Part shown: piece by piece, positions 818 to 25,790 of the stretch
Position numbering within the stretch: the first letter of the stretch is position 1
How the letters are laid out: each line of letters opens with the position of its first letter
NCBI GenBank assembly: GCA_019057385.1
Contig: JAHQJS010000001.1
Location: forward strand, 111,791-139,324
Reading direction: 5' to 3'
Source of the DNA: Candidatus Borrarchaeum weybense
GTDB taxonomy: Archaea; Asgardarchaeota; Sifarchaeia; Borrarchaeales; Borrarchaeaceae
Length of the DNA stretch: 27,534 nt
Program-made: the position numbers and the translations under genes
The notes under the pieces: generated by a model
Database searches by the model: none
Seen by the model: the letters and a program-made list of their open reading frames with translations, nothing else
Told to the model about the DNA's origin: nothing

Positions 818-1593
818 TGTTTTTGTCCTTCCATCCAACAATTTGCGATATCAACACATAGTCTGTTTACCTTCTCGTGATCCGGCTTCTCAGGGAGATC
901 AGAAAGATGAAACGCTTCCTCGGCTAAACAAAACAATCGATTTGCTTCATTCTTAATTCTTCCTAAAGACCACTTGCCTTCTTTAATTTCTAAAAGTTCA
1001 GCAGCATCTTTCCTAAAAACGTTAAGTTTCCCTTCCCGCAAAAACTCAATACCGAGCCTAAGTATTCTGATCAAATGGCTTCCGTTCTTGCAATCATATC
1101 CATATTTTTCAACAAGCTTTTTCCTCTTCTCACCCATAAATCCCTTAAAAGCTAATCGTTCCATTCTCCGCAACTGACCATTAGCATATCCGGCAAAACT
1201 ATGATAGACGTGCTTTCCAACAAACAAATCTTTGTTATCCAGAAGCAACTGACCGGCTGGAGTTATTTTCAAATAGTATTGTGGCTCTAACCAGAGGATG
1301 GACAAAAGATTAGGATTTCCTTTTTCAAGAAGTCTGATAGCTTTCCTATATTCGTATACTACAATATCCCAAACACCTTCTTTGATTTCTTTTGTATTTC
1401 TGGAACCAAACGTTTTCAAACCATAATAATAGTCTACAGGTGGAATACAAAATCCTATTGCATCCTTATCATCAATCGAATTTGGATCTTTATTAGATTT
1501 GTATGTTCCGTGAGAGATAGAACCTCTATATCCTAAAAGAATACACCAATCACTCAAACATTTCATCTCTAATAAGTTTTTAGGAATACTCAT
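814..1593 (-). CDS. Pol-beta superfamily nucleotidyltransferase (Nuc-transf/RlaP-like)
   Basis: GYRGSISHG...DDKD catalytic motif; GNPNLL; YDCKNGSHLIR; ELLEIKEGK; LPEKPD C-terminus typical of this family. Confidence 0.85.
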   Translation of the reverse strand: MSIPKNLLEMKCLSDWCILLGYRGSISHGTYKSNKDPNSIDDKDAIGFCIPPVDYYYGLKTFGSRNTKEIKEGVWDIVVYEYRKAIRLLEKGNPNLLSILWLEPQYYLKITPAGQLLLDNKDLFVGKHVYHSFAGYANGQLRRMERLAFKGFMGEKRKKLVEKYGYDCKNGSHLIRILRLGIEFLREGKLNVFRKDAAELLEIKEGKWSLGRIKNEANRLFCLAEEAFHLSDLPEKPDHEKVNRLCVDIANCWMEGQKQ

Positions 1594-2060
1594 TTACTCT
1601 TTGCTCTCTGAAAATCCTTCACTATCACTCTCAATGCAGCAGCTTCTACCTCATCCATTGTAAAAACGTAAAAAGTAAACTTGCCTGCTTTTTTAGCATA
1701 TTCAATTTCTATTACAGTTCCCCTACTACGCTCCTTATCTATTCCACGAACTATATGGAAATCTTTCCTCTCTAATATCTTACAATCAATCTCTAGAATT
1801 TGTTCTTCTGAAAGATACTCATCTTTATAAGCTATATGAACAAAATCCTCATGCTCTGCAGGAACATACAAGTCAAGTCCGGGAACGTTTTCACGAATCC
1901 ACTCAGCCATTTTTATTGCATCTTTGCAGTTTTCTTCAATATCCTTATCAGTAGCTTTCATTCCCTTCGCTCCTCTGATAGAATGAGAGAAGTAAGCGGA
2001 TACTTTACTCTTCCCTGCTAGATACTTATCTAGTTCTTTTTTGAATTCTTCACTACTCAT
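1590..2060 (-). CDS. Nucleoside 2-deoxyribosyltransferase / nucleotide N-hydrolase-like protein
   Basis: AYFSHSIRG, YVPAEH, IDCKIL and SRGTVIEIEYA (SxGTxxE catalytic Glu motif). Confidence 0.6.
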   Translation of the reverse strand: MSSEEFKKELDKYLAGKSKVSAYFSHSIRGAKGMKATDKDIEENCKDAIKMAEWIRENVPGLDLYVPAEHEDFVHIAYKDEYLSEEQILEIDCKILERKDFHIVRGIDKERSRGTVIEIEYAKKAGKFTFYVFTMDEVEAAALRVIVKDFQRAKSK

Positions 2061-2464
2061 CTCTTTCTCCTAGACTTTTTGTTCAACTTCTTCTTGAGGA
2101 TCTCGTGTAAAAATCCCATCGTGTTAAACAGCTCGGCGCATAGCACATCCTCAATATCATCATAAACAGCCTCATGAGAATATCCTTCATAGTGCAGCCA
2201 GGCATCTATAAAATGCCGGCCTTTGCTATCCATATAAACTTCTTCAGGTATTCCTTGCTTCCAGTTGTCCCAATCACGAACGCTGCCATCCGGGCATAGC
2301 CTATGCTTGCCAATATATTCAACATATCTCTTGAGCACAAGTGGGCTCAAGGCTTTGATAAAACTGAGCTTATCATGATTCGCATCTCGAATTGCTCCAG
2401 TTCCGAACTTCCGCATTTGTCTTTTCTGCACGTTTTTCTTTGCAGTTGCTTTCCATTTGGCCAT
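2057..2464 (-). CDS. dATP/dGTP diphosphohydrolase-like protein (DUF5664 type)
   Basis: FGTGAIRD...K, DNWKQGIP, YMDSKGRH motifs. Confidence 0.75.
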   Translation of the reverse strand: MAKWKATAKKNVQKRQMRKFGTGAIRDANHDKLSFIKALSPLVLKRYVEYIGKHRLCPDGSVRDWDNWKQGIPEEVYMDSKGRHFIDAWLHYEGYSHEAVYDDIEDVLCAELFNTMGFLHEILKKKLNKKSRRKR

Positions 2465-2496
2465 TACTACTTTCCCCTTTTCTTCTATTCAGACTA

Positions 2497-3147
2497 CTAT
2501 CTGCTTCTTCTATATTCTTCAATAGCAGCTATGACAGCTGCTCTTTCCTTCTTCTTATCACGGTTATGCGTTATAGCATTAGTATGAGAATAACCTTTTG
2601 GATATCGAGTATGGAGTTTTGCTAAGTTTATAACCATTAACTCTTCAATGCTCGAGCCAAATAAATCTACCGTGACGAGCATCATATAATGCATCACCCT
2701 TTCCAATCCACGCACAATATCCATTCTAGACAAGGGCTCTCCATGATAAAAAATAAACTTTTTGTATCTATTTAAAAGTTCGCCAGTGGCTCCTGACAAA
2801 CTTCCCAATCCCTGGAGAACACGAATATCAAAGCCAGATATTCTAATATCCAGCAAGTCATCGTTCCATATACTCATTCCTTCAAGCTTAATAACATCCG
2901 AGATAGTTAGATCTCCAAGTTTTCCTATTATCATCTGTGTGAAGTGAAGTAAATCAGATAACTCAATCAAAATGCCATAGTGATCAGGTAAACGCTTAAA
3001 CTCTGCATATTTACTGAGCAATTCACCAGCTTCACTCGCCATGCCCATAAAACCATGAAGAAGGTCAGACCTAAATTCTGGACATAGTTCATCTTGCAGT
3101 AGATTCGCTACCATTTCGGCAAATTCTGTTTCAATAGTCGTGCTCAT
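2497..3147 (-). CDS. MazG-like NTP pyrophosphohydrolase with two tandem MazG-like repeats
   Basis: GMASEAGELL...ELSDLLHF; second repeat ATGELLNRYKK; C-terminal NLAKLHTRYPKGY. Probable start is MSTTIE at 3147. Confidence 0.75.
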   Translation of the reverse strand: MSTTIETEFAEMVANLLQDELCPEFRSDLLHGFMGMASEAGELLSKYAEFKRLPDHYGILIELSDLLHFTQMIIGKLGDLTISDVIKLEGMSIWNDDLLDIRISGFDIRVLQGLGSLSGATGELLNRYKKFIFYHGEPLSRMDIVRGLERVMHYMMLVTVDLFGSSIEELMVINLAKLHTRYPKGYSHTNAITHNRDKKKERAAVIAAIEEYRRSR

Positions 3148-3625
3148 TACGCACCTCAATAATCTCTTTAATATTTATGTGTTCATCTTCTGATGGTGGC
3201 TCAAACATAGAAATATGCTTATCCATAACCAGCTTCCAACTAAATTTATCTCCGCCTCTCAAATTCTTAAACCTTCTCTTAAGAGCTACATCATAGTCAC
3301 ATATTACCCAAATATAACTAATCTCAATATTTGGATCTTGAGTCACCAAATACTCACAAAGTGATTTTCTATCTTCTTTAGTTAAAGTGGAAACACAATC
3401 ATCTATAATTACATTCTTCCCTTGGAATAAAGCTTCTTCAATACATCTTCTCATCATGTTGTGGACAATTGGCTCTAGTTGAAAATCAAAAACGTATCCA
3501 TTCTTAATCATGCCTCTAATGTCATCACCACTAACTCGAATGTTCTTAAAATCACAGCCGGCCATGAGCTTAGCCCAAGTGGACTTACCCGAGCCAATAC
3601 TACCAATAAGAATGTGTGCTTTCAC
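3131..3625 (-). CDS. P-loop kinase (AAA_33/polynucleotide-kinase-like)
   Basis: GSIGSGKSTWA Walker A, SGDDIR, NVIIDD, ALKRR lid, FEPP; GTG start. Confidence 0.8.
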   Translation of the reverse strand: MKAHILIGSIGSGKSTWAKLMAGCDFKNIRVSGDDIRGMIKNGYVFDFQLEPIVHNMMRRCIEEALFQGKNVIIDDCVSTLTKEDRKSLCEYLVTQDPNIEISYIWVICDYDVALKRRFKNLRGGDKFSWKLVMDKHISMFEPPSEDEHINIKEIIEVRNEHDY

Positions 3626-3774
3626 TTCTTCTCCTCTGTTTCTAATGGTTGATCTGATTTGGACTTCTTTTTCTCTTCTATCTCATTCAATGCGGATTCA
3701 AACATTTCTCGTTGATGTTTCATCTCCTGCTCCCGCAGCCATTCCAGAGTTCTTAGTTTCTTTTTTATACCCAT
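3622..3774 (-). CDS. Small charged hypothetical protein, 50 aa (MGIKKKLRTLEWLREQEMKHQREMFESALNEIEEKKKSKSDQPLETEEKK)
   Basis: Manually translated; fills the gap, and its TGA overlaps the GTG of the kinase (GTGA). Confidence 0.65.
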   Translation of the reverse strand: MGIKKKLRTLEWLREQEMKHQREMFESALNEIEEKKKSKSDQPLETEEKK

Positions 3775-3812
3775 AATAATTATACTTTCTTTATCCTGGA
3801 ACTCAAGTATTT
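3775..3812 (-). promoter_or_regulatory. Sigma70-type promoter (TTGAGT-N16-TATAAT)
   Basis: Minus strand CTTGAGTTCCAGGATAAAGAAAGTATAATTATTATG in an intergenic gap; shares AGGAT-N7-GTATAATTA with the site at about 19965. Confidence 0.55.
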
Positions 3813-3813
3813 T

Positions 3814-4488
3814 TCAAAGGGCATCCCCATCCCAATCCCGTTTTCTAAACTCATACCTCAGTTTATTCAGTGTAGATTCTATTATCGCCGCTGCATTCAC
3901 ATCCGAACCTTCCATTTGAATAGCTATTTCTTCAAACGACATATCATTAACAAAACGCATAGTCAGCATTTCAAATTCTTCAAATGAAATAATCCCCTCT
4001 GCTATTAATGTTTCAAACCTATCCCGGAGAAAATTCATCTCAAGCTCTTTATAAACTGGTTCACTATCCACAAGCTTATTCTCGATTTGATACAAATACT
4101 TTTGAGATTGTGGCATGTCATTAGAATAAAGATGAACTTGAAGAGCCACTTCAGCTATTGAAAATGGAAACGTTACTTTATTTGTCTTTTTGTTATCCTT
4201 AGCTATTTCATTACCAACATATCCAACTATGTCAGAAATCAACTTAATCCCTGGTTGATCCTCTTTAACTTTTAGAACCGCCTTAAACAATCCTAGTAAA
4301 GCGGTACTATAAAGATCTTGAATATCAACCCTTTTCAGATAAGGTTTACTTCTTCTGGCTTTATGCACCAACTTGTATAGTAGCCTGTTTACCAGCTCTA
4401 CTATCTTCATAAACGTCTCTTGGTTTTGACTCTCCTTGAATATAAGAGCTAACTCTTTGAGATACTCATATGATCCATGCTCTTCCAT
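3814..4488 (-). CDS. RNA polymerase sigma-factor-like protein
   Basis: Region 2-like DIQDLYSTALLGLFKAV; region 4-like HTH MRFVNDMSFEEIAIQM...TLNKLR. Confidence 0.75.
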   Translation of the reverse strand: MEEHGSYEYLKELALIFKESQNQETFMKIVELVNRLLYKLVHKARRSKPYLKRVDIQDLYSTALLGLFKAVLKVKEDQPGIKLISDIVGYVGNEIAKDNKKTNKVTFPFSIAEVALQVHLYSNDMPQSQKYLYQIENKLVDSEPVYKELEMNFLRDRFETLIAEGIISFEEFEMLTMRFVNDMSFEEIAIQMEGSDVNAAAIIESTLNKLRYEFRKRDWDGDAL

Positions 4489-4494
4489 AACTCC

Positions 4495-6510: not shown

Positions 6511-7234
6511 CTCCTACCTCTTCAATTCTAAGTTTTTCCAAGTTTTTTCGGATGGTTTCTCTATCCCGTGGATCCATATCCTTCATATTTTCCACTAGCT
6601 CTTGATCACTATCGGGCAATTCTTTTATCTCTTTAACCCCGATTCTCTTCCGACCTGGAGTATTCTCTCCTGGAAGAACAACCTGCTGATTGTACTGCTT
6701 AATCAAAGGAGGCTTCTCTCCACCAAATCCAAGACTTTCAGCAGCCTTAACCAACTGCTCTTCATCACGTCTCTTCTCAACTCGAATTTTTCGCTGAACT
6801 TCGAACACATCAAGATTAGGTATTCTATAAACTCTGCAAATCTTGTCGCACTTCATGCAAGTAAAGTGAGGTTCACTCTCTTGATCAATATGCATCTCAG
6901 TTGCAGCATCACAGCAAACTGACCGATAAAGAAACTTATGTCGTTCCAGTTCTTTATCGTCAATATCCCAAAATACTTCTCTCTGTTTTGTGCCCATGAA
7001 TATGTAATCTAATATCCATGTGGCGACGAAAGGATCTCTCGATTTTTGCTCCTTCTTGTACTTCTTAATAACTTTTTTAACAAAATCAACAGTGATCCTT
7101 TCGCCGACATTCTCAACTTCATTCTCATATATGCTCTGAAGTTCCTTCACTATCTCAGCTATATTACCGCGATGCTTAAAGAACAATAGCCTAGTTTTGT
7201 TTTCCCATTCTAATTCTTGAAGCGTTCCAGCCAT
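6488..7234 (-). CDS. Hypothetical protein, probable terminase small subunit
   Basis: Overlaps the terL start; N-terminal HTH-like segment; CC...CxxC cysteine cluster. Confidence 0.45.
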   Translation of the reverse strand: MAGTLQELEWENKTRLLFFKHRGNIAEIVKELQSIYENEVENVGERITVDFVKKVIKKYKKEQKSRDPFVATWILDYIFMGTKQREVFWDIDDKELERHKFLYRSVCCDAATEMHIDQESEPHFTCMKCDKICRVYRIPNLDVFEVQRKIRVEKRRDEEQLVKAAESLGFGGEKPPLIKQYNQQVVLPGENTPGRKRIGVKEIKELPDSDQELVENMKDMDPRDRETIRKNLEKLRIEEVGDGWPKAE

Positions 7235-7235
7235 T

Positions 7236-7610
7236 TTATTCTTCCTCTACAATTCCATAAACATCAGATATTCCACAAACGAAAATATAATGTACCTCTC
7301 CATCCAAACCCTCAACTTCTACTCCCCAAGGAACTAAATTATCAAAGTGCACTTTAACTCCTGGCTTCAAATTCGATGGTGGGAGGCATTGCCATTTTCC
7401 TTTGTCATTTTGATATCCTGGCCCTACAGCCAGAACAACGCCGGTACTATCCTGATGTCGCTTCCTAAACTTCTCAGGAATAAATATTAAACTCTCTTCT
7501 CCTATTTTCTCTGGAGGGGGCGTTGGAAATATAAATACTAAATCACGAAGTGGTCGATATGGAAACTCCAGAATTCCTTCTTCATTATGAAATGGAGTTC
7601 TTTGATTCAT
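7236..7610 (-). CDS. groES: GroES-like co-chaperonin
   Basis: RPLRDLV...IFIP...GVVLAVGPG...LKPG...SDVYGIVE. Confidence 0.85.
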   Translation of the reverse strand: MNQRTPFHNEEGILEFPYRPLRDLVFIFPTPPPEKIGEESLIFIPEKFRKRHQDSTGVVLAVGPGYQNDKGKWQCLPPSNLKPGVKVHFDNLVPWGVEVEGLDGEVHYIFVCGISDVYGIVEEE

Positions 7611-7836
7611 TCCTCTTCTTCCTTCCTTCTACAATATAATTTTTGATGGCGGTTCCACACAAGCAAAATCCCATAAGAGTCAAACCTGGAACTTTATTAT
7701 GCGCCGTAACTGCAGAGAACAAGAGACTATTGGCTGCATATGCAAGCCACCACTTATGACTTCGAGGTATTAAGTATAAAGTCACTATTACTAAAGCTGA
7801 AGTTACAAAATCCAATACTTTAAATAACTTATCCAT
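7585..7836 (-). CDS. Small 3-TM membrane protein, possibly a half-size PnuC/SemiSWEET-like transporter
   Basis: Three hydrophobic helices with a WW..Y..N pattern. Confidence 0.45.
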   Translation of the reverse strand: MDKLFKVLDFVTSALVIVTLYLIPRSHKWWLAYAANSLLFSAVTAHNKVPGLTLMGFCLCGTAIKNYIVEGRKKRNESKNSIS

Positions 7837-7847
7837 CTTGAATCCTC

Positions 7848-8816
7848 CTATTCAAGTAAAGCTCTTAGATCCCGAATAATTTTTTCTTTACTCGTTTCGA
7901 ATTCATCACTCCAAATGATGTAAAATTTATATCCTCTTGCTTCAAAAAACTTCCTTCTATCTTCACTATCATCTGAAGTATTATACCAAGGATTATCATC
8001 AGAGTGCCAGAACCTGGAATTATATTCTACAACCACTCTCATAGACTTGTTAATAAAATCGGGAATTTTTCCATCCACTATGTAACTTCCATCTCCTACA
8101 AACAAGAAGGATAGTTTATTTTCTTTCATAAACTCAATAACTTTTTGTTCCTCCCTATTAGGAGAAAGTTTCTGTGTTTTTCTAAGTGAGGCTATCATTT
8201 TTTCAACGTTTCGTCGATTTTTCATCGGATTATTTAATTTCATTCTCTCGCTTTTTCTTCTTCGTTGTTCAGGATCTTTGTTTGCCTCCAAAATCTTTCC
8301 TGTCATTTCTTCTCGTTTATTAGGATCAACCCATCGATCTTTGCTCGCTTTACCTATCTTCTTTCTCGTTTTTTCGCTTCCTTCACTTTTCCAAAATTTT
8401 CTTCTACCTCGCCTCAATGACTCCTTTCTCACATTGATATCACTACAAGAATACGAGGCAGTATTGCCAGGAGTCTCGGCTATTTCCACTTTTTTGAGAA
8501 TAATCTGCATATCCGAATTGCCATTATAGTCATACAATCTAAAGTGGAGATGTCTAAATACAACATAACACAAATTTTCAGCTGTGGGTTGATCCAGAAA
8601 GTAATTCAATACATTATGATCAAAATCTTGGAGAACTTCTTTTAACCATTTTTTAACTAAAGTAAAATTTATTACCCAACCCTTAGATGACAACTCATCC
8701 GATCGGAAAGTAACCCAAACCGTCCAGCGATGCCCATGCAAATTATCACACTGAGTATTTGTATTTACAAGAAAATGGCAGGCATCAAACGAATCTTGAA
8801 CTTTAATTTCAAACAT
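7848..8816 (-). CDS. queD: QueD (6-carboxy-tetrahydropterin synthase) fused to a Vsr/DUF559-like endonuclease
   Basis: FDACH, CDNLHGH, NFTLVK, DFDH, PTAEN and ETP QueD motifs; then a basic linker and PDF...VVEYNSRFWH...GYKFYIIW. Probable start is ATG 8816. Confidence 0.88.
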   Translation of the reverse strand: MFEIKVQDSFDACHFLVNTNTQCDNLHGHRWTVWVTFRSDELSSKGWVINFTLVKKWLKEVLQDFDHNVLNYFLDQPTAENLCYVVFRHLHFRLYDYNGNSDMQIILKKVEIAETPGNTASYSCSDINVRKESLRRGRRKFWKSEGSEKTRKKIGKASKDRWVDPNKREEMTGKILEANKDPEQRRRKSERMKLNNPMKNRRNVEKMIASLRKTQKLSPNREEQKVIEFMKENKLSFLFVGDGSYIVDGKIPDFINKSMRVVVEYNSRFWHSDDNPWYNTSDDSEDRRKFFEARGYKFYIIWSDEFETSKEKIIRDLRALLE

Positions 8817-9051
8817 CTTCTTTCCTTTTCTTTTTAATTCTATTCTTTTTAAGAAATCGATCAATCTTCTTTTGAGATTCCAGCAACTTGACGCTCATTG
8901 TTCCATCAGAATATGCATTCCCATGTTCTTCAGACCACATCCTGTTGGACATTCGAAGTAGTATAGCATTGGATGCGCAAAGACGCTGTAAAGTTTCTAA
9001 AACTAATTTATCCTCTTCTCTCATTCTACTTCCTCCACTTCGCAGATACAA
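8809..9051 (-). CDS. Hypothetical protein
   Basis: Packed ORF overlapping both neighbours; probable start MREEDK. Confidence 0.55.
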   Translation of the reverse strand: MYLRSGGSRMREEDKLVLETLQRLCASNAILLRMSNRMWSEEHGNAYSDGTMSVKLLESQKKIDRFLKKNRIKKKRKEDV

Positions 9052-9593
9052 GAAAGTTCTCTATATCTTTCTCCAGCGCCCATTCCACAGCCTACAATAA
9101 ATCCTTCACCTGAATATTCCCATCCAACAATATCTGGATCAGTTGCTCCATATTTACTTCTTAGTAATACTTTATCCACGAGGACAGCTGTACGTATTTG
9201 AAGAGGACAGTACCCATATATAATCGTCTCTCCCTCCTCAAGTGTTTTACCTGTTTCTACACAATCATCAATTAAGACAACGGTTCTCCCAGAGATATCT
9301 TTCCTTGACAAATCTAATGGAGTCATCAATTTTACTTCTCCTTTCGACTTCATCTCTTCCCCATAAGACTCAAGTCCTATATGACCTATAATCACGTCCA
9401 ATTCTTCTCTGATACTCGAAAAGCCATTGATGTGATTTAATGCTTTCAATATTTCATACGTCACATAAGCCCCGCCTTTTAGTATAGCTACAAGAGCTAG
9501 AGGTGATTTAATACTGTATATTTCCATTGCCATTTTCACAATAGCTTCTCGAACACCCTCATCTTCCAGAATAGGTTTGAGCTTAACATTCAT
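9021..9593 (-). CDS. hpt: Hypoxanthine-guanine phosphoribosyltransferase-like protein
   Basis: AILKGG, ESYG...GEVKL, PRPP motif VLIDDCVETGKTL, LVDK, FIVGCGM...YREL. Confidence 0.85.
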   Translation of the reverse strand: MNVKLKPILEDEGVREAIVKMAMEIYSIKSPLALVAILKGGAYVTYEILKALNHINGFSSIREELDVIIGHIGLESYGEEMKSKGEVKLMTPLDLSRKDISGRTVVLIDDCVETGKTLEEGETIIYGYCPLQIRTAVLVDKVLLRSKYGATDPDIVGWEYSGEGFIVGCGMGAGERYRELSCICEVEEVE

Positions 9594-10224
9594 CCTCGAT
9601 ATCCCTTTCTATTCTTTCAACTCTACTTATTCCTCTTTCTTTTACAACTACAAAAGATGCGTCTGCTATTTTTGACAACTCGCCCTCCTGCGTGATTATA
9701 ATAAACTGCAAGTCTAGTGTTTCGGAAAGATATCGTATCATTTCTTTTACCGATTCAATATTTTGCAATCCATGCAAGCATCTAAAAGGTTCATCAAAAA
9801 CTAAAGTCGCTCTTGTTCTTTCATATTGAATAGCCCACAAAACTACTCGTAGTGCGAAAGAAACTACGTCCGCCTGACCCCCGCTAAGTTCGTCATCCTT
9901 CGGAGAAAATCTTTCGCCATCAATATCAATAAATAAATGAACTTCAGGTTGGTTATGAGAAATTTCACTTTCTATTACAAAAGAATGATTATCACCAAAT
10001 ACAAATCTTAAAGCCTGAGTAACTAAAGTTTCAACTACATCCTCAAATTCTTGCTGAGCTAAGATTCCTACTATATTCATAACTTCAAGAGCTTCTTCTA
10101 AATCGCCCAAATAAATCAGGCAATCTTTAATCCTATCCTCTAGCTCCTGAATATTTTCCCTGTGAATTTCTATCGAAGCTCTTTTATCACTCAGGAAGTC
10201 TTCATACTTTTTTAGATCCATCAT
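9583..10224 (-). CDS. sbcC: SbcC/Rad50 C-terminal half (ABC signature and Walker B)
   Basis: LSGGQADVVSFALR signature, LVFDEPF Walker B/D-loop, FIIITQ; no Walker A. Confidence 0.85.
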   Translation of the reverse strand: MMDLKKYEDFLSDKRASIEIHRENIQELEDRIKDCLIYLGDLEEALEVMNIVGILAQQEFEDVVETLVTQALRFVFGDNHSFVIESEISHNQPEVHLFIDIDGERFSPKDDELSGGQADVVSFALRVVLWAIQYERTRATLVFDEPFRCLHGLQNIESVKEMIRYLSETLDLQFIIITQEGELSKIADASFVVVKERGISRVERIERDIEDEC

Positions 10225-12795: not shown

Positions 12796-12969
12796 CTATT
12801 TCAAATCCCACTGTAAGTTAATATTGAATCCTCTATACGCCGCGTCTTCTTCTCTATATCTTGACTGGGCAAAACCAATGCCTAATCTATCTGGAGTCAA
12901 AAGGTCTGCGGTGCATCCCGACGTGAATAAAATGACGGCGAGGCATAAAAGCAGAATGAAAGTTTTCAT
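12796..12969 (-). CDS. Small putative lipoprotein, 57 aa (MKTFILLLCLAVILFTSGCTADLLTPDRLGIGFAQSRYREEDAAYRGFNINLQWDLK)
   Basis: Manually translated; AGGAG RBS, ATGA overlap with the sbcC-N stop, lipobox TSG-C. Confidence 0.75.
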   Translation of the reverse strand: MKTFILLLCLAVILFTSGCTADLLTPDRLGIGFAQSRYREEDAAYRGFNINLQWDLK

Positions 12970-14078
12970 ACTCCTTCTCCTAATAATGTTTTCTTTGTAT
13001 TTTCAGTTAGTTTTGATCCACAATGAGGACATGAAGTTAATTGACTTTCAAGCTTCTTCTTCTCCTCCATTTCTTCTGATATCAACTTTCCAAGGTTTTC
13101 AATTCCATCATTAATATCTCGAATATCTTCAGACAGCTCCATGAGTGTTTCTACCTTTTTAGTTGTATCATTATACCTTTCAATCACCTCTTTACTTTTA
13201 GGAAGGATGCTAAGGTCATCTGGAAGATGTATTTTAGTTGCCTCTGCAACCTTTAACTCACTCACCAGATTTCTAAGTCTTTCCAGCTTTTCAGAAGTTT
13301 TAGTAATAGATTCAACATGTTGATTTGCCTGCTCAAGTGTTCCATCTATATTTTCTGGGATGACTATTTGATGGGCATCTAAATCTCTTATGGCATCAAC
13401 AATGTTCTTGAGTTTAGATAAAGTGCTTCTCGTTTCATCAATTCTTCGAATAACTTCTTTAGCCTTAGTTATCCTCTTTTCCAACCCATCAAGATCTATC
13501 TTAATCAAAGTTTTTAACTTAGTTCGGTTTGTTTCCAATTCTCCTTGGTCACGAACAACATCAGCCTTCTCCGAACGAATATCACTAGATAATAGTTGCC
13601 TTACCTCATCTATCTCATCCAATTTTGTTATAGCTCGGATGTAGGTAGCAATTTGTCCTGGAGGCGCATATACAAGAAAATAAGGATCTCTTTGCTTCTG
13701 GATATTTATATCGGACAAATTGAGGATTTTAGTTACTTCATCTGGAGGCGTAGTTCCAGCTGCGATGGTAGCGAACTTTTTTCCATCCTTAGTCAAAACA
13801 TAATTGTTTACATCTTCGCCAGATATCTTTCCACGATTGCGAGATATTCCATACTCTCCATCACTTTCGGTTACACTAAGAGATACTTTACATCCTTTTT
13901 GTCCTCTTCTAATATAGCCGGTTCCAAGAGGTCGATTATCCTTAACCAACTTTAAAGCTTGCAGAATGTTCGTTTTCCCCTGACCTGAGTCTCCAGTTAT
14001 AACATTTATCCTTTTTGAAAACTCAAGTTTAGTGTTCTCGTGGGACTTGCAATCTTCTATGATAAGATCTTTAAACAT
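12966..14078 (-). CDS. sbcC: SbcC/Rad50 N-terminal half (Walker A, Q-loop, coiled coil, zinc hook)
   Basis: ITGDSGQGKTNIL, NIQKQRDPYFL, long coiled coil, CPHCG near the C-terminus. Confidence 0.87.
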   Translation of the reverse strand: MFKDLIIEDCKSHENTKLEFSKRINVITGDSGQGKTNILQALKLVKDNRPLGTGYIRRGQKGCKVSLSVTESDGEYGISRNRGKISGEDVNNYVLTKDGKKFATIAAGTTPPDEVTKILNLSDINIQKQRDPYFLVYAPPGQIATYIRAITKLDEIDEVRQLLSSDIRSEKADVVRDQGELETNRTKLKTLIKIDLDGLEKRITKAKEVIRRIDETRSTLSKLKNIVDAIRDLDAHQIVIPENIDGTLEQANQHVESITKTSEKLERLRNLVSELKVAEATKIHLPDDLSILPKSKEVIERYNDTTKKVETLMELSEDIRDINDGIENLGKLISEEMEEKKKLESQLTSCPHCGSKLTENTKKTLLGEGV

Positions 14079-15628: not shown

Positions 15629-15649
15629 ATTTATCTTTCCTATTATTCC

Positions 15650-15705: not shown

Positions 15706-15731
15706 TCAACAGAACATCTGACTACCAATCC

Positions 15732-16772: not shown

Positions 16773-16775
16773 ATT

Positions 16776-18333: not shown

Positions 18334-18356
18334 CTCTTTAATCTCCAACTAAAATG

Positions 18357-18452: not shown

Positions 18453-18466
18453 CTTATCACTTCCAA

Positions 18467-18599
18467 AATACCAGAGTGAGGACTCCCGATTCTCCACCTC
18501 ATATGCTTCGCTTGTACTCCTCTCTATGTACAGTTATGGGATTAACACTGCTAACGACTAAGCACAGCATTTTATTGATCGTTCTATACCTCTGGTATT
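18467..18599 (-). ncRNA. Candidate structured RNA closed by a perfect 10-bp helix
   Basis: AATACCAGAG (18467-18476) and CTCTGGTATT (18590-18599) inverted repeat, with internal hairpins. Confidence 0.45.
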
Positions 18600-19573: not shown

Positions 19574-19575
19574 GA

Positions 19576-19944
19576 CTACTCCTCTTTTACTAAGGGTGGC
19601 TGCTTTATTTCTTTTTCTACTTTGGATATCACATACAAAACATGATTGGCAAAGCTCTTAGCCTTCTTAGCTTCCATTATTACCATATCCGGCCAAGGAC
19701 TTTTATGCTTAAATACGTGATAAGCCATCCTAAGTCGATCCCATATTCCCCATCGCCCATGTGTAGGATGACCAAACTCCCAAAATGAAAATTCTATAAA
19801 AGGCGCCCCTTGGCAATCCCTTAATCTCTTATCCTCACTCACTAAAATTTCTCCTTCCTCCTCATCAAATAAATCTGATGAAGTAACAGCGATTCCTTCG
19901 CCCATACAATCACAAGGGAATACTTTGGTTGGTTTTTCGAACAT
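19576..19944 (-). CDS. Hypothetical protein
   Basis: AGGAG RBS; first gene after the promoter. Confidence 0.65.
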   Translation of the reverse strand: MFEKPTKVFPCDCMGEGIAVTSSDLFDEEEGEILVSEDKRLRDCQGAPFIEFSFWEFGHPTHGRWGIWDRLRMAYHVFKHKSPWPDMVIMEAKKAKSFANHVLYVISKVEKEIKQPPLVKEE

Positions 19945-19959
19945 TCCTATTCTCCTATC

Positions 19960-20000
19960 TATAGTAATTATACATTTTCGATCCTTCTACATTAAGATTT
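19960..20000 (-). promoter_or_regulatory. Promoter with TATAAT -10 box
   Basis: Minus strand CTTAATGTAGAAGGATCGAAAATGTATAATTACTATAG in an intergenic gap. Confidence 0.55.
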
Positions 20001-22679
20001 TCAAGAGGCTGCGACCATGAAATTATCCAACTCAATTCTTTCATCCTTCAGGCACACATACTTTTTATCTTCTCTAATTGATATTGGTTTCATCTCGTAC
20101 CAATTCCAACCTATCTCCCATTCAACACTTAAAGGAATACCTCTTTGCCACTCGTACCTCTCGGAACACATTATTTCCGTAACTATATTAATCAGCTCAT
20201 CCACTTCTTCTATTATCGCATCAAAAGCCATACTATCATGAACTTCCATATTCGCGAATGATTTTAATTTTCTTTTCCTAAACTCCGCTCCAACTCTAAT
20301 CAAAGCATCAAGCAAGAGATGGAAAGACACTCCTTGGATCAGATTGTTGTATAACTGATTAATGGATAATGGACCTATTCTTCTCCATCCATTAACTGCT
20401 TCAACATAACCATCCTGCATGTAATCACGAATCATTTTATTTTGCCATTCCTTGACATAATGATACTCCTCCCAGAATTCCTTCTGAACTTGCTTTACGT
20501 GATCAGGAGAAAGGTCAGGGAAAGATCTAACAATGCTGGTATCCTTTGAGCCGTAAAAACTTGGAAAAACAAATCCATTTTTTATTCCATATCTTTGATC
20601 TTTCGTTACGTCCTCAACGGGCTTTCGATACATTTTAGATGTCCATCTCCAGTGAGTATCAAAAGGATTATGTCCACCTTCTGGATGTTCCTCATCCCAC
20701 TTCTTTCCCTCTCGGATTTGCCTGATAAGTTCTGGATCTCCAGAAAACATAGCTATACCCTTAACCTCCATGCCGCTATAGTCAACCTCAGGCATAATTC
20801 TGCCAATAGATGGAACAATACATTTTCTAAATATAAGAAGCTCTTTATCATGCTTAAACACGTTTTGGATATTTGGACTATCTGCAGAAGATCTATAGGT
20901 ATCGGCCATGTTCAAATTATATGATGGATGAACATATCCATATTTATCCATGACATTTCTATAATTGGTAGCTCGTTCTGTTAAACTACAGGTCTTCCTA
21001 AATCTAAGAAGCGCATTGATCAGAGTCCTTACTTCTTCATTATCTGTAACCTCCATAATTATTGGAAGAGCATTCTTATCAGTACACAACTTTTTATTCT
21101 TTATCTTCGGTAGCTTCCTATTTTTCGTTGGATCAATCTTGTAAGTATTCTTTAAAATGGCAGCCACTTGAGGCGATGAATCTGGATTAAACTCCTTTTC
21201 ATTCTCTTCTTCATACTGCCTAACTCCAGATAAAGCTTTCATCTCAGATATTCTAAGCTCTCTCTCGGATAGATACTTATCCTCAAGTTCTTTAAGAACA
21301 TCCAAATCTATTCTATTTCCCCTCTCCCTCATGCTCACCAATTCCTTCGCTCCTTCAAGATAGAACTTATAGAATTCTCCAACACCTGGATTTGCCTCAA
21401 AGAATGCTTTCTGATCATAGTAAGACATTAATGTGTATCTACCATCGAAGCAGTTATAATTGCAAACCTTATCCAATGGTTCAGAAGATATGTTCTTAAC
21501 ATCAACCATTCCCTTGTAGCTATGCCCAGCCAGCATAAGCGCTTGAAATCCCAAGCCGGTTGTATTCGAATTATTATTTATCACGTGAGCGGCGATCATG
21601 GTATCATGAATAATGTTATCCGCTGGTTGATCCAAAAACATCCTACCCCATATTTCTTCCATGTTGATATTCTGTACTACCTTTGGAACTCTACTCCTTA
21701 AAAATTCTCTCCAAGCGTCTAGAATTACTTCTTGTTCCCGACGACTAAAAATAGCGGTGCCATTATCATTTGATAACTTTAGAGGAATAACTCCCCCATA
21801 GTCCACATGATTAGCTGCTGATATAGTTAGTAAATCCGCAGTTTCCAACCAAGGGAATAATTCTGTAGCCTCATAGTCATAGGCCGTTGGTTTGTTTTCT
21901 CGGATTAGATTTTTAATAAACTCAACTGCTTCATCAACATTAGTTAAATGCCTGTTGCCTTCTCTAGATAAAGGTCGGGGCAGAGGTTGATCAAGATATG
22001 AAATTATGTTAGCCAAATCATATCCTAGAATGATTTCGTCATCTGGATACTTGTCCTTCTTCTGACTTCGATATCTAAAAAACGCGGGATGATAAGAACA
22101 TCCTACCCAGCAATTAAACTCATGAAATGGTACAACTTTTCCATGCATCTGCCCGGCTGTGAAACCTTTCATATTCAAAGTTTTTAGAATAGCGTTTATC
22201 GCAGGTCCGCCCAGGCATATAATTAACTTAGGTTGAGTTTCTTCAATATCTTTTAATATTCTTTCACTGCAGCATTTATACTGTTCTTTTGTAGGCTCTT
22301 TATCCTCTCCTCTATCATTCTGTCCTGGATAACATTGAACAATATTCTGTCTCCAGCAGTCTGCGTCCATATCTATTCCAACATACTCAAACATCCTCTT
22401 CAAAAGTCTTCCGGATGGACCGACTAAAGGTTTACCTTTCCTATCCTCTACTCTTCCTGGGCATTGTCCTATGATAAGAATTTTCTTCCTTCCATCTCCG
22501 AACCTTTCCATCTTGGGGGTTCTGCACCTTCTATGGAGCCCACAAGTATCACAGTCGTAAATCTTCTTAGCCTTCGGTCGCCCACCACAAGCGGGTCGTT
22601 TCTTTCTCTCAAACTTCTCAGGATGCTCCTTCTGAAAAATCTCCCACTTGCTCATGAAGAAAGCTGGCTGTTTTCCCAT
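20001..22679 (-). CDS. polA: Family A DNA polymerase with N-terminal family-4 UDG-like domain and 3'-5' exonuclease
   Basis: UDG: CxxC...GQCPG..ED..GKPLVGPSG...YHPA. Exonuclease: DYE, HDTM, YNCFD. Polymerase: PNIQN, DYSGME, R...K....F...YG, VHDS. Confidence 0.93.
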   Translation of the reverse strand: MGKQPAFFMSKWEIFQKEHPEKFERKKRPACGGRPKAKKIYDCDTCGLHRRCRTPKMERFGDGRKKILIIGQCPGRVEDRKGKPLVGPSGRLLKRMFEYVGIDMDADCWRQNIVQCYPGQNDRGEDKEPTKEQYKCCSERILKDIEETQPKLIICLGGPAINAILKTLNMKGFTAGQMHGKVVPFHEFNCWVGCSYHPAFFRYRSQKKDKYPDDEIILGYDLANIISYLDQPLPRPLSREGNRHLTNVDEAVEFIKNLIRENKPTAYDYEATELFPWLETADLLTISAANHVDYGGVIPLKLSNDNGTAIFSRREQEVILDAWREFLRSRVPKVVQNINMEEIWGRMFLDQPADNIIHDTMIAAHVINNNSNTTGLGFQALMLAGHSYKGMVDVKNISSEPLDKVCNYNCFDGRYTLMSYYDQKAFFEANPGVGEFYKFYLEGAKELVSMRERGNRIDLDVLKELEDKYLSERELRISEMKALSGVRQYEEENEKEFNPDSSPQVAAILKNTYKIDPTKNRKLPKIKNKKLCTDKNALPIIMEVTDNEEVRTLINALLRFRKTCSLTERATNYRNVMDKYGYVHPSYNLNMADTYRSSADSPNIQNVFKHDKELLIFRKCIVPSIGRIMPEVDYSGMEVKGIAMFSGDPELIRQIREGKKWDEEHPEGGHNPFDTHWRWTSKMYRKPVEDVTKDQRYGIKNGFVFPSFYGSKDTSIVRSFPDLSPDHVKQVQKEFWEEYHYVKEWQNKMIRDYMQDGYVEAVNGWRRIGPLSINQLYNNLIQGVSFHLLLDALIRVGAEFRKRKLKSFANMEVHDSMAFDAIIEEVDELINIVTEIMCSERYEWQRGIPLSVEWEIGWNWYEMKPISIREDKKYVCLKDERIELDNFMVAAS

Positions 22680-23740
22680 TACTCTTCCTCTCTTACTTGT
22701 GTTACATACCGTAACTTATCTGCCTCAAGAAGGATTAATCCCATCGTATCATAATACTTAAAGTACGGACAAAGGCCAATGATATCTTTCAAGAACATTG
22801 GATTAACCGTAATTTCTACTTTGCCCTCTCCTGAGGATGATATCTCAATTTCATCAACAAGAGTATTCTTCGTTCCCTCCAGTAATTTATCTTTAGAAGT
22901 AATCGTCGCTTCATTTCCTGAGATTTGAATGATAGATTCCTTATCAATTAGGTCAACGTGAGAAAGAAAAGTCACATGCCTCTCCATTACATCAAAAATC
23001 TCAGCTGGGAATCTTATTTCCTCATATTCTCCAGTGGCCGGGAAATACTTCAAAACATCTGGATATTCTCCAGATATACCCGTCGTACTAACGATCGTTC
23101 CATCCTTTAGAATAGCAGACAATTCCTTTCCCTCTTTTAACTTGGTAAAACTCAGTTTTTCTATCTCTTCTCGATGCTTCACTATAATATCAACAAACTT
23201 TGGAGATACTGAGCAAGAAATCGGAATAGTATTCTCCAACCTCCATTCAACTACTCTAAACCTATCTGTAGCAATAAGAATATCTTTATCAATCATAACT
23301 CCACGCACCGGGCCGGCGGTTTGGTCTTTAGAAACATACATCCTGCAAATTCTCAATCCCTTTATCAAATCTTGAATATCCTTCTCATCCTCAATGATTG
23401 TATTGGACATAGTTGCTTCTTTCAAAGAAACATCTTTCAAAACCTGAAACGTTCCTTTAACTCTATTCGTCCTGACCTTGACTTCATCGCCATCAAAAAT
23501 CAACTCGATTTGATCATCCTCAAGACTTCTAAGGAGTTTCAAAAACGACTCAGCAGGAATTCCACAATCCTTTTCTATTCCTTCAAGTAATGTAGTACTA
23601 ATTAAAACGCGGCCATTCCATCCTTGAAGTATATTTTTGAATATCTTGAAATACGAATAGTGCGGAACGATCGGATTTAGCGCGATAGCTGGATACACTT
23701 TTTCCAACTGTTCAAGTAATTTTTCTCGATTCAACTTCAT
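22679..23740 (-). CDS. dnaN: Beta-type DNA sliding clamp
   Basis: About 353 aa; IATDRFRV, GEYPDV, VNPMFLKD; probable start MKLNREKL. Confidence 0.8.
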   Translation of the reverse strand: MKLNREKLLEQLEKVYPAIALNPIVPHYSYFKIFKNILQGWNGRVLISTTLLEGIEKDCGIPAESFLKLLRSLEDDQIELIFDGDEVKVRTNRVKGTFQVLKDVSLKEATMSNTIIEDEKDIQDLIKGLRICRMYVSKDQTAGPVRGVMIDKDILIATDRFRVVEWRLENTIPISCSVSPKFVDIIVKHREEIEKLSFTKLKEGKELSAILKDGTIVSTTGISGEYPDVLKYFPATGEYEEIRFPAEIFDVMERHVTFLSHVDLIDKESIIQISGNEATITSKDKLLEGTKNTLVDEIEISSSGEGKVEITVNPMFLKDIIGLCPYFKYYDTMGLILLEADKLRYVTQVREEE

Positions 23741-23755
23741 TCTAACTTCTCCCAA

Positions 23756-24742
23756 TTAAAATAACCTTTTGCATGATCTTCGATTTTTTTCCTCCTCCTT
23801 GAAGTGCTCATCTCTATACCTTAAAAAATCATCGAAAAATCTAAAGTTAGCTCTAGCTCTTTCAAGCGATTCTGTCTCCATTTTCTTCATATCTATTCCG
23901 ATAGACTCAAAGTAGTTATGTATCATATCCTGCGTTTCTTTATCCGGAAATTGATTTCTATAATGTGTAGCTACCGTATCCTTCTTCAAGCCTATCTCAG
24001 AAACACATATACGTTTTGGAATTTCTCCATATTGTGGATTTCCAGAGGGATCAAGAATTGGCAAATATACAATACCAAATGCCGCACTCTTTATCCAATT
24101 TGTACTGTCAACAGAGTACCAATTAAATCTCGACATAACAGGAACTGAAGTCAATCCAAATCCATGAACTTTAACTTCTCTGCCGCAGTTCTTAATTATA
24201 TTCCAAGCTGCCACACCAAACTTAGTCATATAATTGTAGCTAAACAGGCCAGCACTTACACCACCTCCAAGTGCTATGTAATCATATTTCTGAACTATCT
24301 GTTTCAGATACTCGAAATGAGCTTCCTGAATCATGGCATCTTCTTGCTTCTTGTGATAATGGAAAACCGCAACAGGCTTTAATCCAGCCGCTTCCATTCG
24401 CTCCTGCATTCTCATAGTCTTTTCTGGATTACCTACAAAGTCCAAGTTAGCATAAGCGTATAGTCGATGATTCCATTCCTTAATAAATTTTATATAGTTA
24501 TCCAAGTACTTCTCTTCATCGGCCTCTGTAACAACCTTACCCTGCATTGTCATCTGATGATCCCAACTATATGCACCAGAGTCCAAGAAAATTTTGAATG
24601 TAGGATATGTTTTGAATGCTTTGACTAATCTATCTTGATACCAAAAAGATTCAAGAGTATAAACTTCTTTCCTTTCAAGCATCTGCATCAACTCGGGATA
24701 GGACATCCCGTAATTAGCCACGCCAGCATGGTAAACATGCAT
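23756..24742 (-). CDS. tRNA/DNA-guanine transglycosylase-like (TGT/DpdA-like) protein
   Basis: IFLDSGAYS, NLD, VFH, YIALGG, VHGFG, YSVDSTNW TIM-barrel motifs; adjacent to queC. Confidence 0.8.
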   Translation of the reverse strand: MHVYHAGVANYGMSYPELMQMLERKEVYTLESFWYQDRLVKAFKTYPTFKIFLDSGAYSWDHQMTMQGKVVTEADEEKYLDNYIKFIKEWNHRLYAYANLDFVGNPEKTMRMQERMEAAGLKPVAVFHYHKKQEDAMIQEAHFEYLKQIVQKYDYIALGGGVSAGLFSYNYMTKFGVAAWNIIKNCGREVKVHGFGLTSVPVMSRFNWYSVDSTNWIKSAAFGIVYLPILDPSGNPQYGEIPKRICVSEIGLKKDTVATHYRNQFPDKETQDMIHNYFESIGIDMKKMETESLERARANFRFFDDFLRYRDEHFKEEEKNRRSCKRLF

Positions 24743-24776
24743 ATCTGCTCCTCCATCTACTCTTCGTTCGGCAAAT

Positions 24777-25790
24777 CTATGTATGTTCTATATCCTCAAG
24801 ATACTCCCATTCCATAGCCTTATCATCAATTAATACATCATATTGAGGCTTACCAAATTCTATACCATCATATTGAACGTTATTCGCCTCCAGCCACATG
24901 CTTGTAACTTGACAATCCTCTGGATATCGGCTTGTCCACAAAATTATCTCTGCTCCAGCCAGATAGAGCAAGTTCACTTTCTTAATCACATCCATCTTCG
25001 GGGTCCTAGTTGCATAATCATGTCCTTCTGTCTCTTCAGTTAGAACACCATCAATATCAACTCGATATATTTTTCCAAGATATTTATGTTTGAACTTTCT
25101 GGCGAATTCGTCTATAGCCACGTGTATAGAAGCGTTCCTCTCAATTGTATAATGTTCTTGCCGTGCTCGAATAAGATAATCCTTCATCAGCACGAGATTA
25201 TAAAAAGGTGTTTCAATACCATTAACCCAAAGAGCGTTCCATTTTCTAAAACAACATTGGCACTTCCCACAATATCGTTTTATACTTGTTCCATTATCCT
25301 TATCTGGTGTATAACAACTTATAGTTTGATGAAGCTTATCCCAATTTCCCGGATAAGTATCTATATACCACTTGACAATTTCCGCTTTAGTCATATTCCA
25401 AAATGGACTAGTAACTTTTATCGGCCTATCATTAAGACTAGTCAACAAAGTTGACATTTCCTTAAAAGCTTCTGGAGTCTTATCATTAACCTTATCATCC
25501 TTCAAACCACAAATGATAATTTCATCTCCATACTTGCAAGCTAACATAGCGAGATATAAATTCCTCATTGGAATATGCGCTGCAGTATCACTCGGGATTT
25601 GTCTTGAAGCAAGATTAAGAGAGTTATCAATAATGGTATCTGGAATCAATTCTTTAATTACCCGAATCTCATAATCGCTATACGGCGTTCTTAGATTAAA
25701 GTATACCGTCTTTGGTCTTCCAAGATATCTATAAGCGATAAATGAATCGATTCCGCCACTGAATAAAAGTACTCTTTTGTCTTCACTCAT
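24777..25790 (-). CDS. queC: QueC-like 7-cyano-7-deazaguanine synthase fused to a C-terminal HAD phosphatase
   Basis: FSGGIDS PP-loop, IPMRN, PFWNMTKAEIV, SCY...CGKCQCC; then VDIDGVL...WTSR...FGKP...IDDKA. Confidence 0.85.
   Translation of the reverse strand: MSEDKRVLLFSGGIDSFIAYRYLGRPKTVYFNLRTPYSDYEIRVIKELIPDTIIDNSLNLASRQIPSDTAAHIPMRNLYLAMLACKYGDEIIICGLKDDKVNDKTPEAFKEMSTLLTSLNDRPIKVTSPFWNMTKAEIVKWYIDTYPGNWDKLHQTISCYTPDKDNGTSIKRYCGKCQCCFRKWNALWVNGIETPFYNLVLMKDYLIRARQEHYTIERNASIHVAIDEFARKFKHKYLGKIYRVDIDGVLTEETEGHDYATRTPKMDVIKKVNLLYLAGAEIILWTSRYPEDCQVTSMWLEANNVQYDGIEFGKPQYDVLIDDKAMEWEYLEDIEHT

Follow-up and report, generated by a model that had tools for sequence, protein, structure and literature searches.

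A 7-deazaguanine DNA modification system with an HPRT-like phosphoribosyltransferase beside queD and a QueC-HAD fusion in an uncultured tailed phage

The stretch of DNA analysed here, which we call the window, comprises 27,534 nucleotides (C1:111791-139324) of a 179,096-bp scaffold, JAHQJS010000001.1 (G000:C1, hereafter C1), filed in assembly GCA_019057385.1 of the archaeon Candidatus Borrarchaeum weybense. The scaffold represents an uncultured tailed phage of about 179 kb with bacterial-type replication genes, whose replication and nucleotide-metabolism module makes up the window. As an earlier note on the window had supposed, the phage possesses a 7-deazaguanine DNA system: FolE, QueD, QueE, a divergent QueC and DpdA are all encoded on the one scaffold, with their genes spread across approximately 46 kb. 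The reading that we favour, and to which we give about an even chance, combines post-replicative exchange of a preQ0-type base by DpdA with recycling of guanine by an HPRT-like phosphoribosyltransferase (PRTase) encoded next to queD. The phage would make a 7-deazaguanine base from GTP via FolE, QueD, QueE and the divergent QueC, and DpdA would then swap this phage-made base for G in finished double-stranded DNA. Because one guanine is released per exchange and one GTP is spent on every new base, the PRTase would close the loop: it would convert the guanine expelled by DpdA into GMP, and might in addition take up guanine that MazG-like and NDT-like enzymes liberate from dG nucleotides, whereupon conversion of GMP to GTP would refill the substrate pool of FolE and the exchange product would be removed. 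The MazG-like, PF18909-like and NDT-clan proteins might feed the same pool by taking dGTP via dGMP to guanine. The sequence shows the gene set, the subfamily of DpdA, the conserved linkages and the altered HPRT residues, whereas we infer which base is made, how much of the G it replaces and what the HPRT-like enzyme does. For comparison, relatives were taken from IMG/VR and from other metagenome contigs; they comprise a close family with 50-70% protein identity (G001-G004, L045 and L046) and a distant lineage with 23-35% identity in replication proteins (G005 and L034), the sequence examined for G005 being 48 kb, or about 56% of its genome.

Two of the synthesis genes lie outside the window, as had been pointed out, and both turned up elsewhere on C1 when the remaining genome was searched: FolE at C1:157739-158320 (PF01227, 209.6 bits; NF006826, 204 bits; above the curated cut-offs) and QueE at C1:150918-151808 (TIGR03963, 152.6 bits). 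The earlier note had also called for a search for queF and gat-queC, and here the outcome was negative: no queF, queA, arcS (DUF5591) or Gat domain was found on C1. The predicted base is therefore of the preQ0 type, most likely preQ0 or a close derivative; we predict either preQ0 itself or a product made from 7-carboxy-7-deazaguanine (CDG) or preQ0 by as-yet-unnamed enzymes. The QueD gene (CPH4 synthase) was correctly placed and assigned at 7848..8816 (ORF to 8864) on the minus strand, as are all other features of the window listed below. It matches PF01242 with 99.5 bits, scores 87.0 with TIGR03367 against a cut-off of 89.25, and carries a C-terminal DUF559/MTES_1575-like endonuclease domain with weak matches to PF18741 and PF04480. 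Its CxxxHGH motif reads CDNLHGH, and C-x3-HGH is also present in G001, G003 and G004. The decarboxylase paralogue DpdL has LxxxHRHxF in place of this motif (PMC10516641), and since the catalytic CxxxHGH is kept, the window gene is QueD; a DpdL identity is ruled out for all of the QueD-like genes. The QueD proteins of the relatives are 115-133 aa long and share about 30% identity with the QueD part of the window protein, as compared with 55-65% for the flanking genes. In L034 (L034:4276-6827), QueD has an N-terminal HNH/NUMOD-like part, and QueE contains a HINT (intein) domain. Homing elements seem to target the que genes, and the window queD may have been swapped in via such an element.

The TGT/DpdA-like gene at 23756..24742 was confirmed as DpdA and is a DNA guanine transglycosylase of the 9g/DpdA1 type (phrog_887, 6e-40; no Pfam match). 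A profile built from the window DpdA and five relatives (A1) matched 9g DpdA at 1.6e-54 with 179 bits, and at E<=0.1 it found nothing in nt-1 (DpdA2), CP220 or phiST (DpdA3), which rules out membership of the DpdA2 and DpdA3 subfamilies; sequence searches that start from 9g DpdA likewise fail to reach these two subfamilies. Residues D54 (FLDSG), D101 (ANLD), H193 and D212 (SVDST) are invariant across the six relatives and align with D72, D114, H196 and D215 of 9g; from the alignment, D54, D101 and D212 would be the catalytic aspartates of TGT enzymes, and His at 9g position 196 is a residue that DpdA2 does not have (PMC6884629). DpdA1 is the subfamily with post-replicative, partial-level insertion (PMC10516641, PMC6884629), in which a free base is inserted after replication at 0.1-30% of G (PMC10516641). 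The nearest named relative of the window protein is the DpdA of Vid5, in whose DNA about 7.5% of G is present as dG+ (PMC8306585). In every lineage, the distant ones included, dpdA lies beside the genes for the clamp and PolA. We also observed that DpdA ends in KRLF (window 23756-23770) and the nearby methyltransferase in KMLLF (window 25801-25815), the DpdA proteins of close relatives ending in KLF, KFF or PVF; these tails resemble clamp-binding tails and are putative ones at most. The predicted complex of the beta clamp with the C-terminal 104 residues of DpdA scored 0.02 (mark 0.32), which speaks neither for nor against tethering to the clamp. At C1:23619-24243 there is another DpdA-like gene, which belongs to the G001 type (49% identity); it is shortened and split between two frames, with residues ~103-303 left and the N-terminal stretch that would contain the aspartate of FLDSG gone.

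The HPRT-like purine PRTase is encoded at 9021..9593 (PF00156, 49.4 bits) and belongs to a phage-only clade of 53 sequences sharing 53-65% identity, with the next match, at 37%, found among cellular genes. The contigs of this clade that were examined, and others of up to 160 kb, are phage-like in look, and none of the clade members has been named by its source beyond HPRT. Alignment to 5W8V and to human HGPRT (1BZY) shows that the phosphoribosyl pyrophosphate (PRPP) loop, the equivalents of Lys68 and Lys165, the Ser-Tyr loop and the stacking Phe are all kept. Two positions are changed, Asp137 to Glu and Asp193 to Gly, and each change is at least 90% conserved in the 53 sequences; the Gly replacing Asp193 lies in a Gly-rich G-x-G-M-G-x-G-E loop. 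In HGPRT, Asp137 contacts the purine N7 and acts as general acid/base, and Asp193 contacts Mg/PPi and the purine edge; the replacement of the N7-contacting residue by Glu is conservative. In each of the six lineages compared (the window, G001/G002, G003, G004, L045 and L046), the HPRT-like gene directly precedes queD, and this adjacency persists despite the divergence of QueD to about 30% identity. An altered HPRT next to queD, as originally described, is therefore borne out in both respects. Of the HPRT/NDT/DUF5664 set for which the earlier note had suggested a test of co-occurrence with que genes, HPRT is tied to queD; the dGTP_diPhyd_N-like (DUF5664-type) gene was found in only one of the three relatives that cover its stretch. 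Elsewhere in phage records, HPRT-type genes yielded 11 weak matches, mostly to unannotated fragments.

Purine PRTases of another family accompany deazaguanine genes in other phages. Homologues of the small Gpt-like PRTase of phiST are present in 34 of 50,697 phage records, namely in the phiST group, the immuto Flavobacterium phages, CP220-like Campylobacter phages, two Brevundimonas phages, one Synechococcus phage, two faecal contigs and Vibrio phages. In the phiST, immuto and CP220-like groups every G is replaced (PMC10516641). In the Vibrio phages the Gpt-like match falls within the FolE gene: the GTP cyclohydrolase I of Vibrio phage 1.207.B (MG592577.1, L044:4800-5723) is 307 aa long, with FolE at residues ~115-304 and an N-terminal extension of about 115 aa that matches the C-terminal part of the phiST PRTase (36% over 55 aa), and the fused folE sits in a queE-queC-queD-folE-dpdA operon. 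Since FolE uses GTP, this fusion fits recycling of guanine to GTP. No PF00156 gene was found in 9g or nt-1. The CP220 gene following the PRTase was considered as a possible QueD, but it has no CxxxHGH, and PRTase-QueD adjacency is not claimed for CP220. That two unrelated PRTase families have become linked to deazaguanine pathways, each in phage groups of its own and among them the three that replace every G, points to a genuine function that has been overlooked.

The QueC-HAD gene was likewise located where it had been described, at 24777..25790, and combines a divergent QueC (residues 1-228; PF06508, 56.1 bits) with a capless HAD phosphatase (residues 235-337). It contains the PP-loop SGGIDS, the zinc motif CGKCQCC and the HAD motif DIDGVL, and SGGIDS together with C159/C174/C177/C180 is invariant in a 54-sequence alignment (A4). 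The product of the QueC part, whether nitrile, amide or other, is uncertain, because it scores 37.8 with TIGR00364 against an equivalog cut-off of 150.3, phmmer against the PDB matched no QueC chain, and the clade has an invariant DD..DK motif at residues 98-104 (A4), which we take to be positioned at the YPDCR region of canonical QueC. In the AF2 model (pLDDT 90.5), the QueC part is nearest in Foldseek to 3BL5 (5e-8) and 2PG3 (2e-7), followed by QatC and Cap9. The HAD part, with all HAD motifs kept, matches 1XPJ and AfhF of phage HY126 (9IQW) both by fold (Foldseek) and by sequence (AfhF, 1.5e-5). AfhF takes the 5-phosphate off arabinofuranose 1,5-bisphosphate in the supply of NDP-arabinose for DNA glycosylation (PMC13326640), and by analogy the HAD substrate may be a 5-phospho-pentofuranosyl compound, either a sugar bisphosphate or a nucleoside 5'-monophosphate. 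The QueC-like clade is fused to HAD in about 60 sequences, and L034 encodes the HAD on its own (96 aa) between queC and dpdA; altogether, a phosphatase is fused or adjacent to QueC in three lineages. G001/G002 have HPRT and QueD without a detectable HAD, whereas G005 and L034 have QueC, HAD and DpdA and no PRTase in the sequence examined.

Several further genes accompany the que genes. C1 contains three additional radical SAM genes. The gene at C1:141591-142610 codes for a radical SAM protein of about 335 aa with C-terminal Cys motifs (twitch/SPASM-like) that is distinct from QueE. In G005 and L034 this extra radical SAM gene stands between folE and queC, and in C1 and G004 it is close to queC; it keeps company with the que genes in three lineages. 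Its structure model (pLDDT 65) gives generic matches to BlsE, PqqE, MoaA and viperin. At C1:10167-11630, a gene for a MoaA-like radical SAM protein (272 aa) precedes another QueC-like gene (211 aa; SGGMDS, CGRCYRC), the nearest solved relative of which is Cap9 from CBASS, with a weak match to QatC; this pair could be a counter-defence module or a second deazapurine-type module. A Q_salvage/DUF2419 (Qng1-like) gene is located at C1:160760-161683, 2.4 kb from folE (PF10343, 64.7 bits against a cut-off of 25). In cells, the Qng1/DUF2419 family releases queuine from queuosine 5'-phosphate.

The NDT-like, DUF5664-type and MazG genes listed in the earlier note are all present, the DUF5664 type being recognized by feature search only. 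The NDT-clan (DUF4406/DUF1937-like) protein of 156 aa (1590..2060; phrog_355, 1e-4; Atlas features DUF4406/DUF7768/DUF1937, 0.93) contains a GTVIEIEYA motif, occurs in G001, G003 and G004 at 54-65% identity, and could be a predicted N-glycosidase or deoxyribosyltransferase. It is followed by a dGTP_diPhyd_N (PF18909, formerly DUF5664)-like protein of 135 aa (2057..2464; Atlas features 0.95, with 100 of 100 matches to the same family set; phrog_18716), which has no Pfam or NCBIfam HMM match, and of which a weak homologue was seen in G003 only, among the three relatives covering this stretch. The MazG-like pyrophosphohydrolase (2497..3159; phrog_229, 6e-14 over residues 121-207; Atlas MazG, 0.92) consists of two MazG-like halves, with EAGE in the N half and ATGE, in which the first Glu is lost, in the C half; the protein is conserved in G001, G003 and G004. 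The P-loop kinase, of the polynucleotide kinase/PSTK type, is indeed encoded at 3131..3625 (AAA_33, 38.7 bits; phrog_505 polynucleotide kinase, 2e-14; TIGR03574 PSTK; TIGR04075 Pnkp), but the part in nucleotide activation that had been proposed for it is the less likely one, as among named proteins it comes closest to polynucleotide kinase and PSTK and not to nucleotide kinases. The phage carries an RNA-repair set consisting of RlaP, the PNK/PSTK-like kinase, RtcB, Thg1 and an RNA ligase (window 814-1593 and 3131-3625; C1:13812-15011, 153567-154259 and 154899-156233), and given the PNK/PSTK likeness and the presence of RtcB, RNA ligase, Thg1 and RlaP in the same phage, participation of the kinase in RNA repair seems more likely, judging by sequence, than nucleotide activation. 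Immediately downstream of queD, at 7585..7836, lies a conserved 83-aa protein with hydrophobic stretches and an invariant WW..Y motif (alignment A3). It had been described as a PnuC-like membrane protein, a label that is not supported and has been dropped, there being no Pfam match and no PnuC in the PDB profile search.

Recycling of guanine released by transglycosylation, which the earlier note had offered as its alternative, is thus the reading that we prefer for the HPRT-like enzyme, because the change at the N7 position is to a conservative Glu, the O6-binding Lys is kept, and a FolE-PRTase fusion exists elsewhere; the role of the enzyme is nonetheless inferred. Several points weigh against it. 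A cellular host usually has its own Hpt or Gpt, and a phage copy needs a special reason. The protein scores 84.7 with TIGR01203, below the NCBIfam HGPRTase cut-off of 150, and ordinary guanine salvage is not assured, since the change of Asp193 to Gly removes a residue normally invariant in HGPRTs. The linkage of QueC to HAD has no role in a purely base-level pathway. The extra radical SAM, GT2, DUF488 and Qng1-like genes, conserved near the que genes, are left unexplained, and for that reason the final base may be other than preQ0. In the 48 kb examined of the distant phage G005, which shares the QueC-HAD-DpdA cluster, no PRTase was found. Finally, TubE, a purine PRTase of about 190 aa, can use CDG (PMC6112128).

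The last point leads to a route like that of TubE/ToyH, which we consider unlikely though deserving of attention, in which the HPRT-like enzyme would couple CDG or preQ0 to PRPP, yielding a 7-deazaguanine ribonucleotide, and the QueC-linked HAD would take off the 5'-phosphate; possible uses of the product are as a storage or carrier form, as the true substrate of the divergent QueC, or as a bioactive nucleoside. TubE (194 aa) is a proven CDG-PRPP phosphoribosyltransferase (PMC6112128), and ToyH is the proposed preQ0 enzyme, such clusters also having a phosphatase (PMC6112128; bioRxiv 10.64898/2026.04.15.718813). The fixed changes at two purine- or metal-contacting positions in the HPRT-like clade, the constant position of its gene next to queD, and the invariant DD..DK of the QueC clade where YPDCR is expected would all suit this route, as would the AfhF substrate, a pentofuranose 5-phosphate with an anomeric substituent that is chemically near a nucleoside 5'-monophosphate, and a report, cited in PMC10516641, of ADG nucleoside in CP220-infected cells. 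We keep it under consideration because the HPRT-like enzyme has lost Asp193, QueC is linked to a pentose-5-phosphatase, and TubE chemistry exists. On the other hand, the PRTase and the HAD do not travel together in the sequence examined (G001/G002 versus G005/L034), Glu at the Asp137 position would leave less room for a C7 substituent, and the FolE-PRTase fusion suits GTP supply better than a late step of the pathway. Rather improbable, yet worth stating, is the broader proposal that purine PRTases (HPRT-type here; Gpt-type in phiST, CP220 and immuto) are a convergently recruited third component of deazaguanine systems, and that here HPRT and the QueC-tethered AfhF-like 5-phosphatase may act on deazaguanine, the base then passing through a stage as ribonucleotide or nucleoside that either precedes direct exchange by DpdA or takes its place; if such a stage is true, how high-level G replacement is reached becomes a question again. 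Further hypermodification of the inserted base, which would be glycosylated or extended by the extra radical SAM, GT2, DUF488, AfhF-like HAD and KdsA, is compatible with exchange plus guanine recycling, and we hold it to be fairly doubtful: the radical SAM gene recurs in the vicinity of queC as described above, the block radical SAM-GT2-DUF488-QueC-HAD-DpdA is kept in G004 at 53-75% identity, AfhF serves NDP-sugar supply for phage DNA glycosylation (PMC13326640), and KdsA (327 bits) is on the same scaffold; however, the lack of QueF on C1 leaves the base without an aminomethyl handle, the model of the radical SAM protein is of low quality and its structural matches are generic, GT2 and KdsA are widespread phage auxiliary genes, and no nucleotidyltransferase was identified.

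Pre-replicative or replisome-coupled replacement of G, the leading proposal of the earlier note, is the least supported reading in its full form and in our judgement very improbable. It would have the analogue converted to a dNTP via PRTase/NDT and then the kinase, with MazG and the dGTP_diPhyd_N-like protein destroying dGTP, PolA incorporating the analogue, and DpdA tidying up. The MazG-like, dGTP_diPhyd_N-like, NDT-clan and kinase genes do form one block (1590-3625), dpdA does adjoin the clamp and PolA genes throughout the relatives, and phiST, with 100% of G replaced, has a MazG/dUTPase-like gene inside its deazaguanine cluster in addition to the PRTase (PMC10516641). Nevertheless, DpdA is intact and of the DpdA1 type, for which partial exchange after replication is the rule, and this disfavours a pre-replicative main route; the kinase is PNK/RNA-kinase-like in a phage that has RtcB, RNA ligase, Thg1 and RlaP; no dedicated enzyme for an analogue deoxynucleotide was identified; the dGTP_diPhyd_N-like gene has a single weak homologue among the relatives; and all known phage deazaguanine modifications have been concluded to be post-replicative (PMC10516641). 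It is also conceivable, if distinctly unlikely, that the nucleotide-level genes are unrelated to the deazaguanine system and represent general pool and RNA-repair genes sharing the module by chance, as large phages without a known deazaguanine system commonly have MazG, NDT-clan and PNK-like genes (Atlas clusters >90% viral) and the block 1590-3625 is separated from queD by 4-5 kb and from dpdA by 20 kb. Chance association would, however, leave unexplained the strict HPRT-queD adjacency maintained while queD diverged, the near-absence of HPRT-type genes in other phage records, the QueC-HAD fusion, and the confinement of Gpt-like PRTases to deazaguanine phage groups.

Gene orientation on C1 is one-sided along the entire scaffold, and within the window the long ORFs are on the minus strand throughout, with a GC content of 36-43% and a strongly negative GC skew; the scaffold has eight 100-N gaps, two of which flank the window. 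Virion and packaging genes include the portal, the prohead protease and a weak terminase-like match, and replication genes include the beta clamp, UDG-PolA, the clamp loader, gp32, RecA/UvsX, DnaB, a DnaG-like primase and SbcCD, along with GroES. The phage's own PolA, clamp and clamp loader, as first reported, are thereby confirmed: the polymerase is a UDG-domain-PolA fusion (20001..22679; PF00476, 162 bits; PF03167, 80 bits), and the sliding clamp is a bacterial-type beta clamp (22679..23740; PF00712, 23.8 bits; alignment A2). SbcC/Rad50 is encoded as two genes on either side of sbcD (window 9583-10224 and 12966-14078), and is split in the same way in G001, G003, G004, L045 and L046. Upstream of QueC-HAD are an N6/N4 DNA methyltransferase (25801..26541; PF01555, 162.7 bits), which is variable and by synteny missing from the equivalent site in G003 and G004, and a DUF488-N3a protein (26525..26914; PF22751, 74.4 bits), which is kept in these two relatives at 70-75% identity. 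A GT2 gene (C1:139712-140488) lies beside DUF488 and QueC-HAD, KdsA (Kdo-8-phosphate synthase; above cut-off) is at C1:108863-109789, and N6/N4 DNA methyltransferases, of which the phage has three, are encoded at C1:107226-108801 in addition to the window copy; a fourth methylase-like ORF, recognized by BLAST similarity only, adjoins folE. The phage DNA probably bears more than one kind of modification. Bin membership of C1 is uninformative on the host, the scaffold carrying bacterial-type replication genes, and an argument from a host without QueC was accordingly given up; KdsA hints at a Gram-negative host. DNA of the scaffold was found in Logan contigs of sediment metagenomes from two studies. 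Megablast of 19 kb against the 50,697 phage records gave zero matches, and the best identity to any phage record is <=25% for PolA and <=36% for DpdA.

The presence of 7-deazaguanines in phage DNA is currently of interest as a means of evading restriction and CRISPR, and C1 adds to this subject a second PRTase family, unrelated to the Gpt-like one, that is linked to deazaguanine genes. Candidate functions of these PRTases are a guanine-to-GTP loop that would make large-scale exchange affordable and pull it forward, or a deazaguanine nucleotide branch. To our knowledge, published schemes (FolE, QueD, QueE, QueC and DpdA plus tailoring) include no salvage or nucleotide-level step, and in the literature searched we found no paper combining DpdA, phosphoribosyltransferase and phage.

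Comparison with known systems shows that C1 shares its preQ0 enzyme set and DpdA subfamily with 9g, CAjan and Vid5 (DpdA1; PMC6884629, PMC10516641), in which the set includes QueC or Gat-QueC and the expected mechanism is likewise post-replicative exchange. Unlike in the 9g-type systems, the C1 genes do not form one operon but are spread over about 46 kb of 179 kb, the QueC has diverged strongly and is fused to HAD, an HPRT-like PRTase is fixed beside queD, and the gene set also includes an extra radical SAM gene and a Qng1-like one. The phiST, CP220 and immuto phages (DpdA3, complete G replacement) resemble C1 in having deazaguanine synthesis genes together with a purine PRTase; however, their PRTase is a Gpt-like protein of about 140 aa from another family, with no BLAST similarity to the C1 enzyme, DpdA3 of phiST and CP220 is undetected by the window DpdA profile, and phiST has DpdL and is without QueC. 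The tubercidin and toyocamycin clusters of Streptomyces (PMC6112128) combine, as does C1, FolE, QueD and QueE (and QueC in toyocamycin) with a PRTase of about 190 aa and a phosphatase, but have GMP-reductase-like and decarboxylase tailoring enzymes, none of which were seen here, and no DpdA; the C1 enzyme is likened to TubE/ToyH by size and gene company. With cellular HGPRT (human 1BZY, Hpt, TIGR01203) it has in common the fold, the PRPP loop, Lys68/Lys165, the Ser-Tyr loop and the Phe, and differs in having Glu and Gly in place of Asp137 and Asp193, in its sub-cut-off score and in the phage-like contigs of its clade. AfhF of HY126 (9IQW), from the arabinosyl-5-hydroxycytosine pathway, is the nearest solved relative of the C1 HAD by sequence and, with 1XPJ, among the nearest by fold; in contrast to HY126, no arabinose-5-phosphate isomerase or AfhE-like kinase-pyrophosphorylase was identified, and the C1-type HAD is fused to QueC or placed between queC and dpdA. 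The core deazaguanine system of C1 is thus a known one, and what is new with respect to the literature searched is the linkage to an HPRT-type PRTase, the QueC-HAD fusion, the conserved extra radical SAM and the Qng1-like gene; of these, the fusion and the conserved radical SAM suggest that the C1 lineage uses a base or a route outside the eight so far described.

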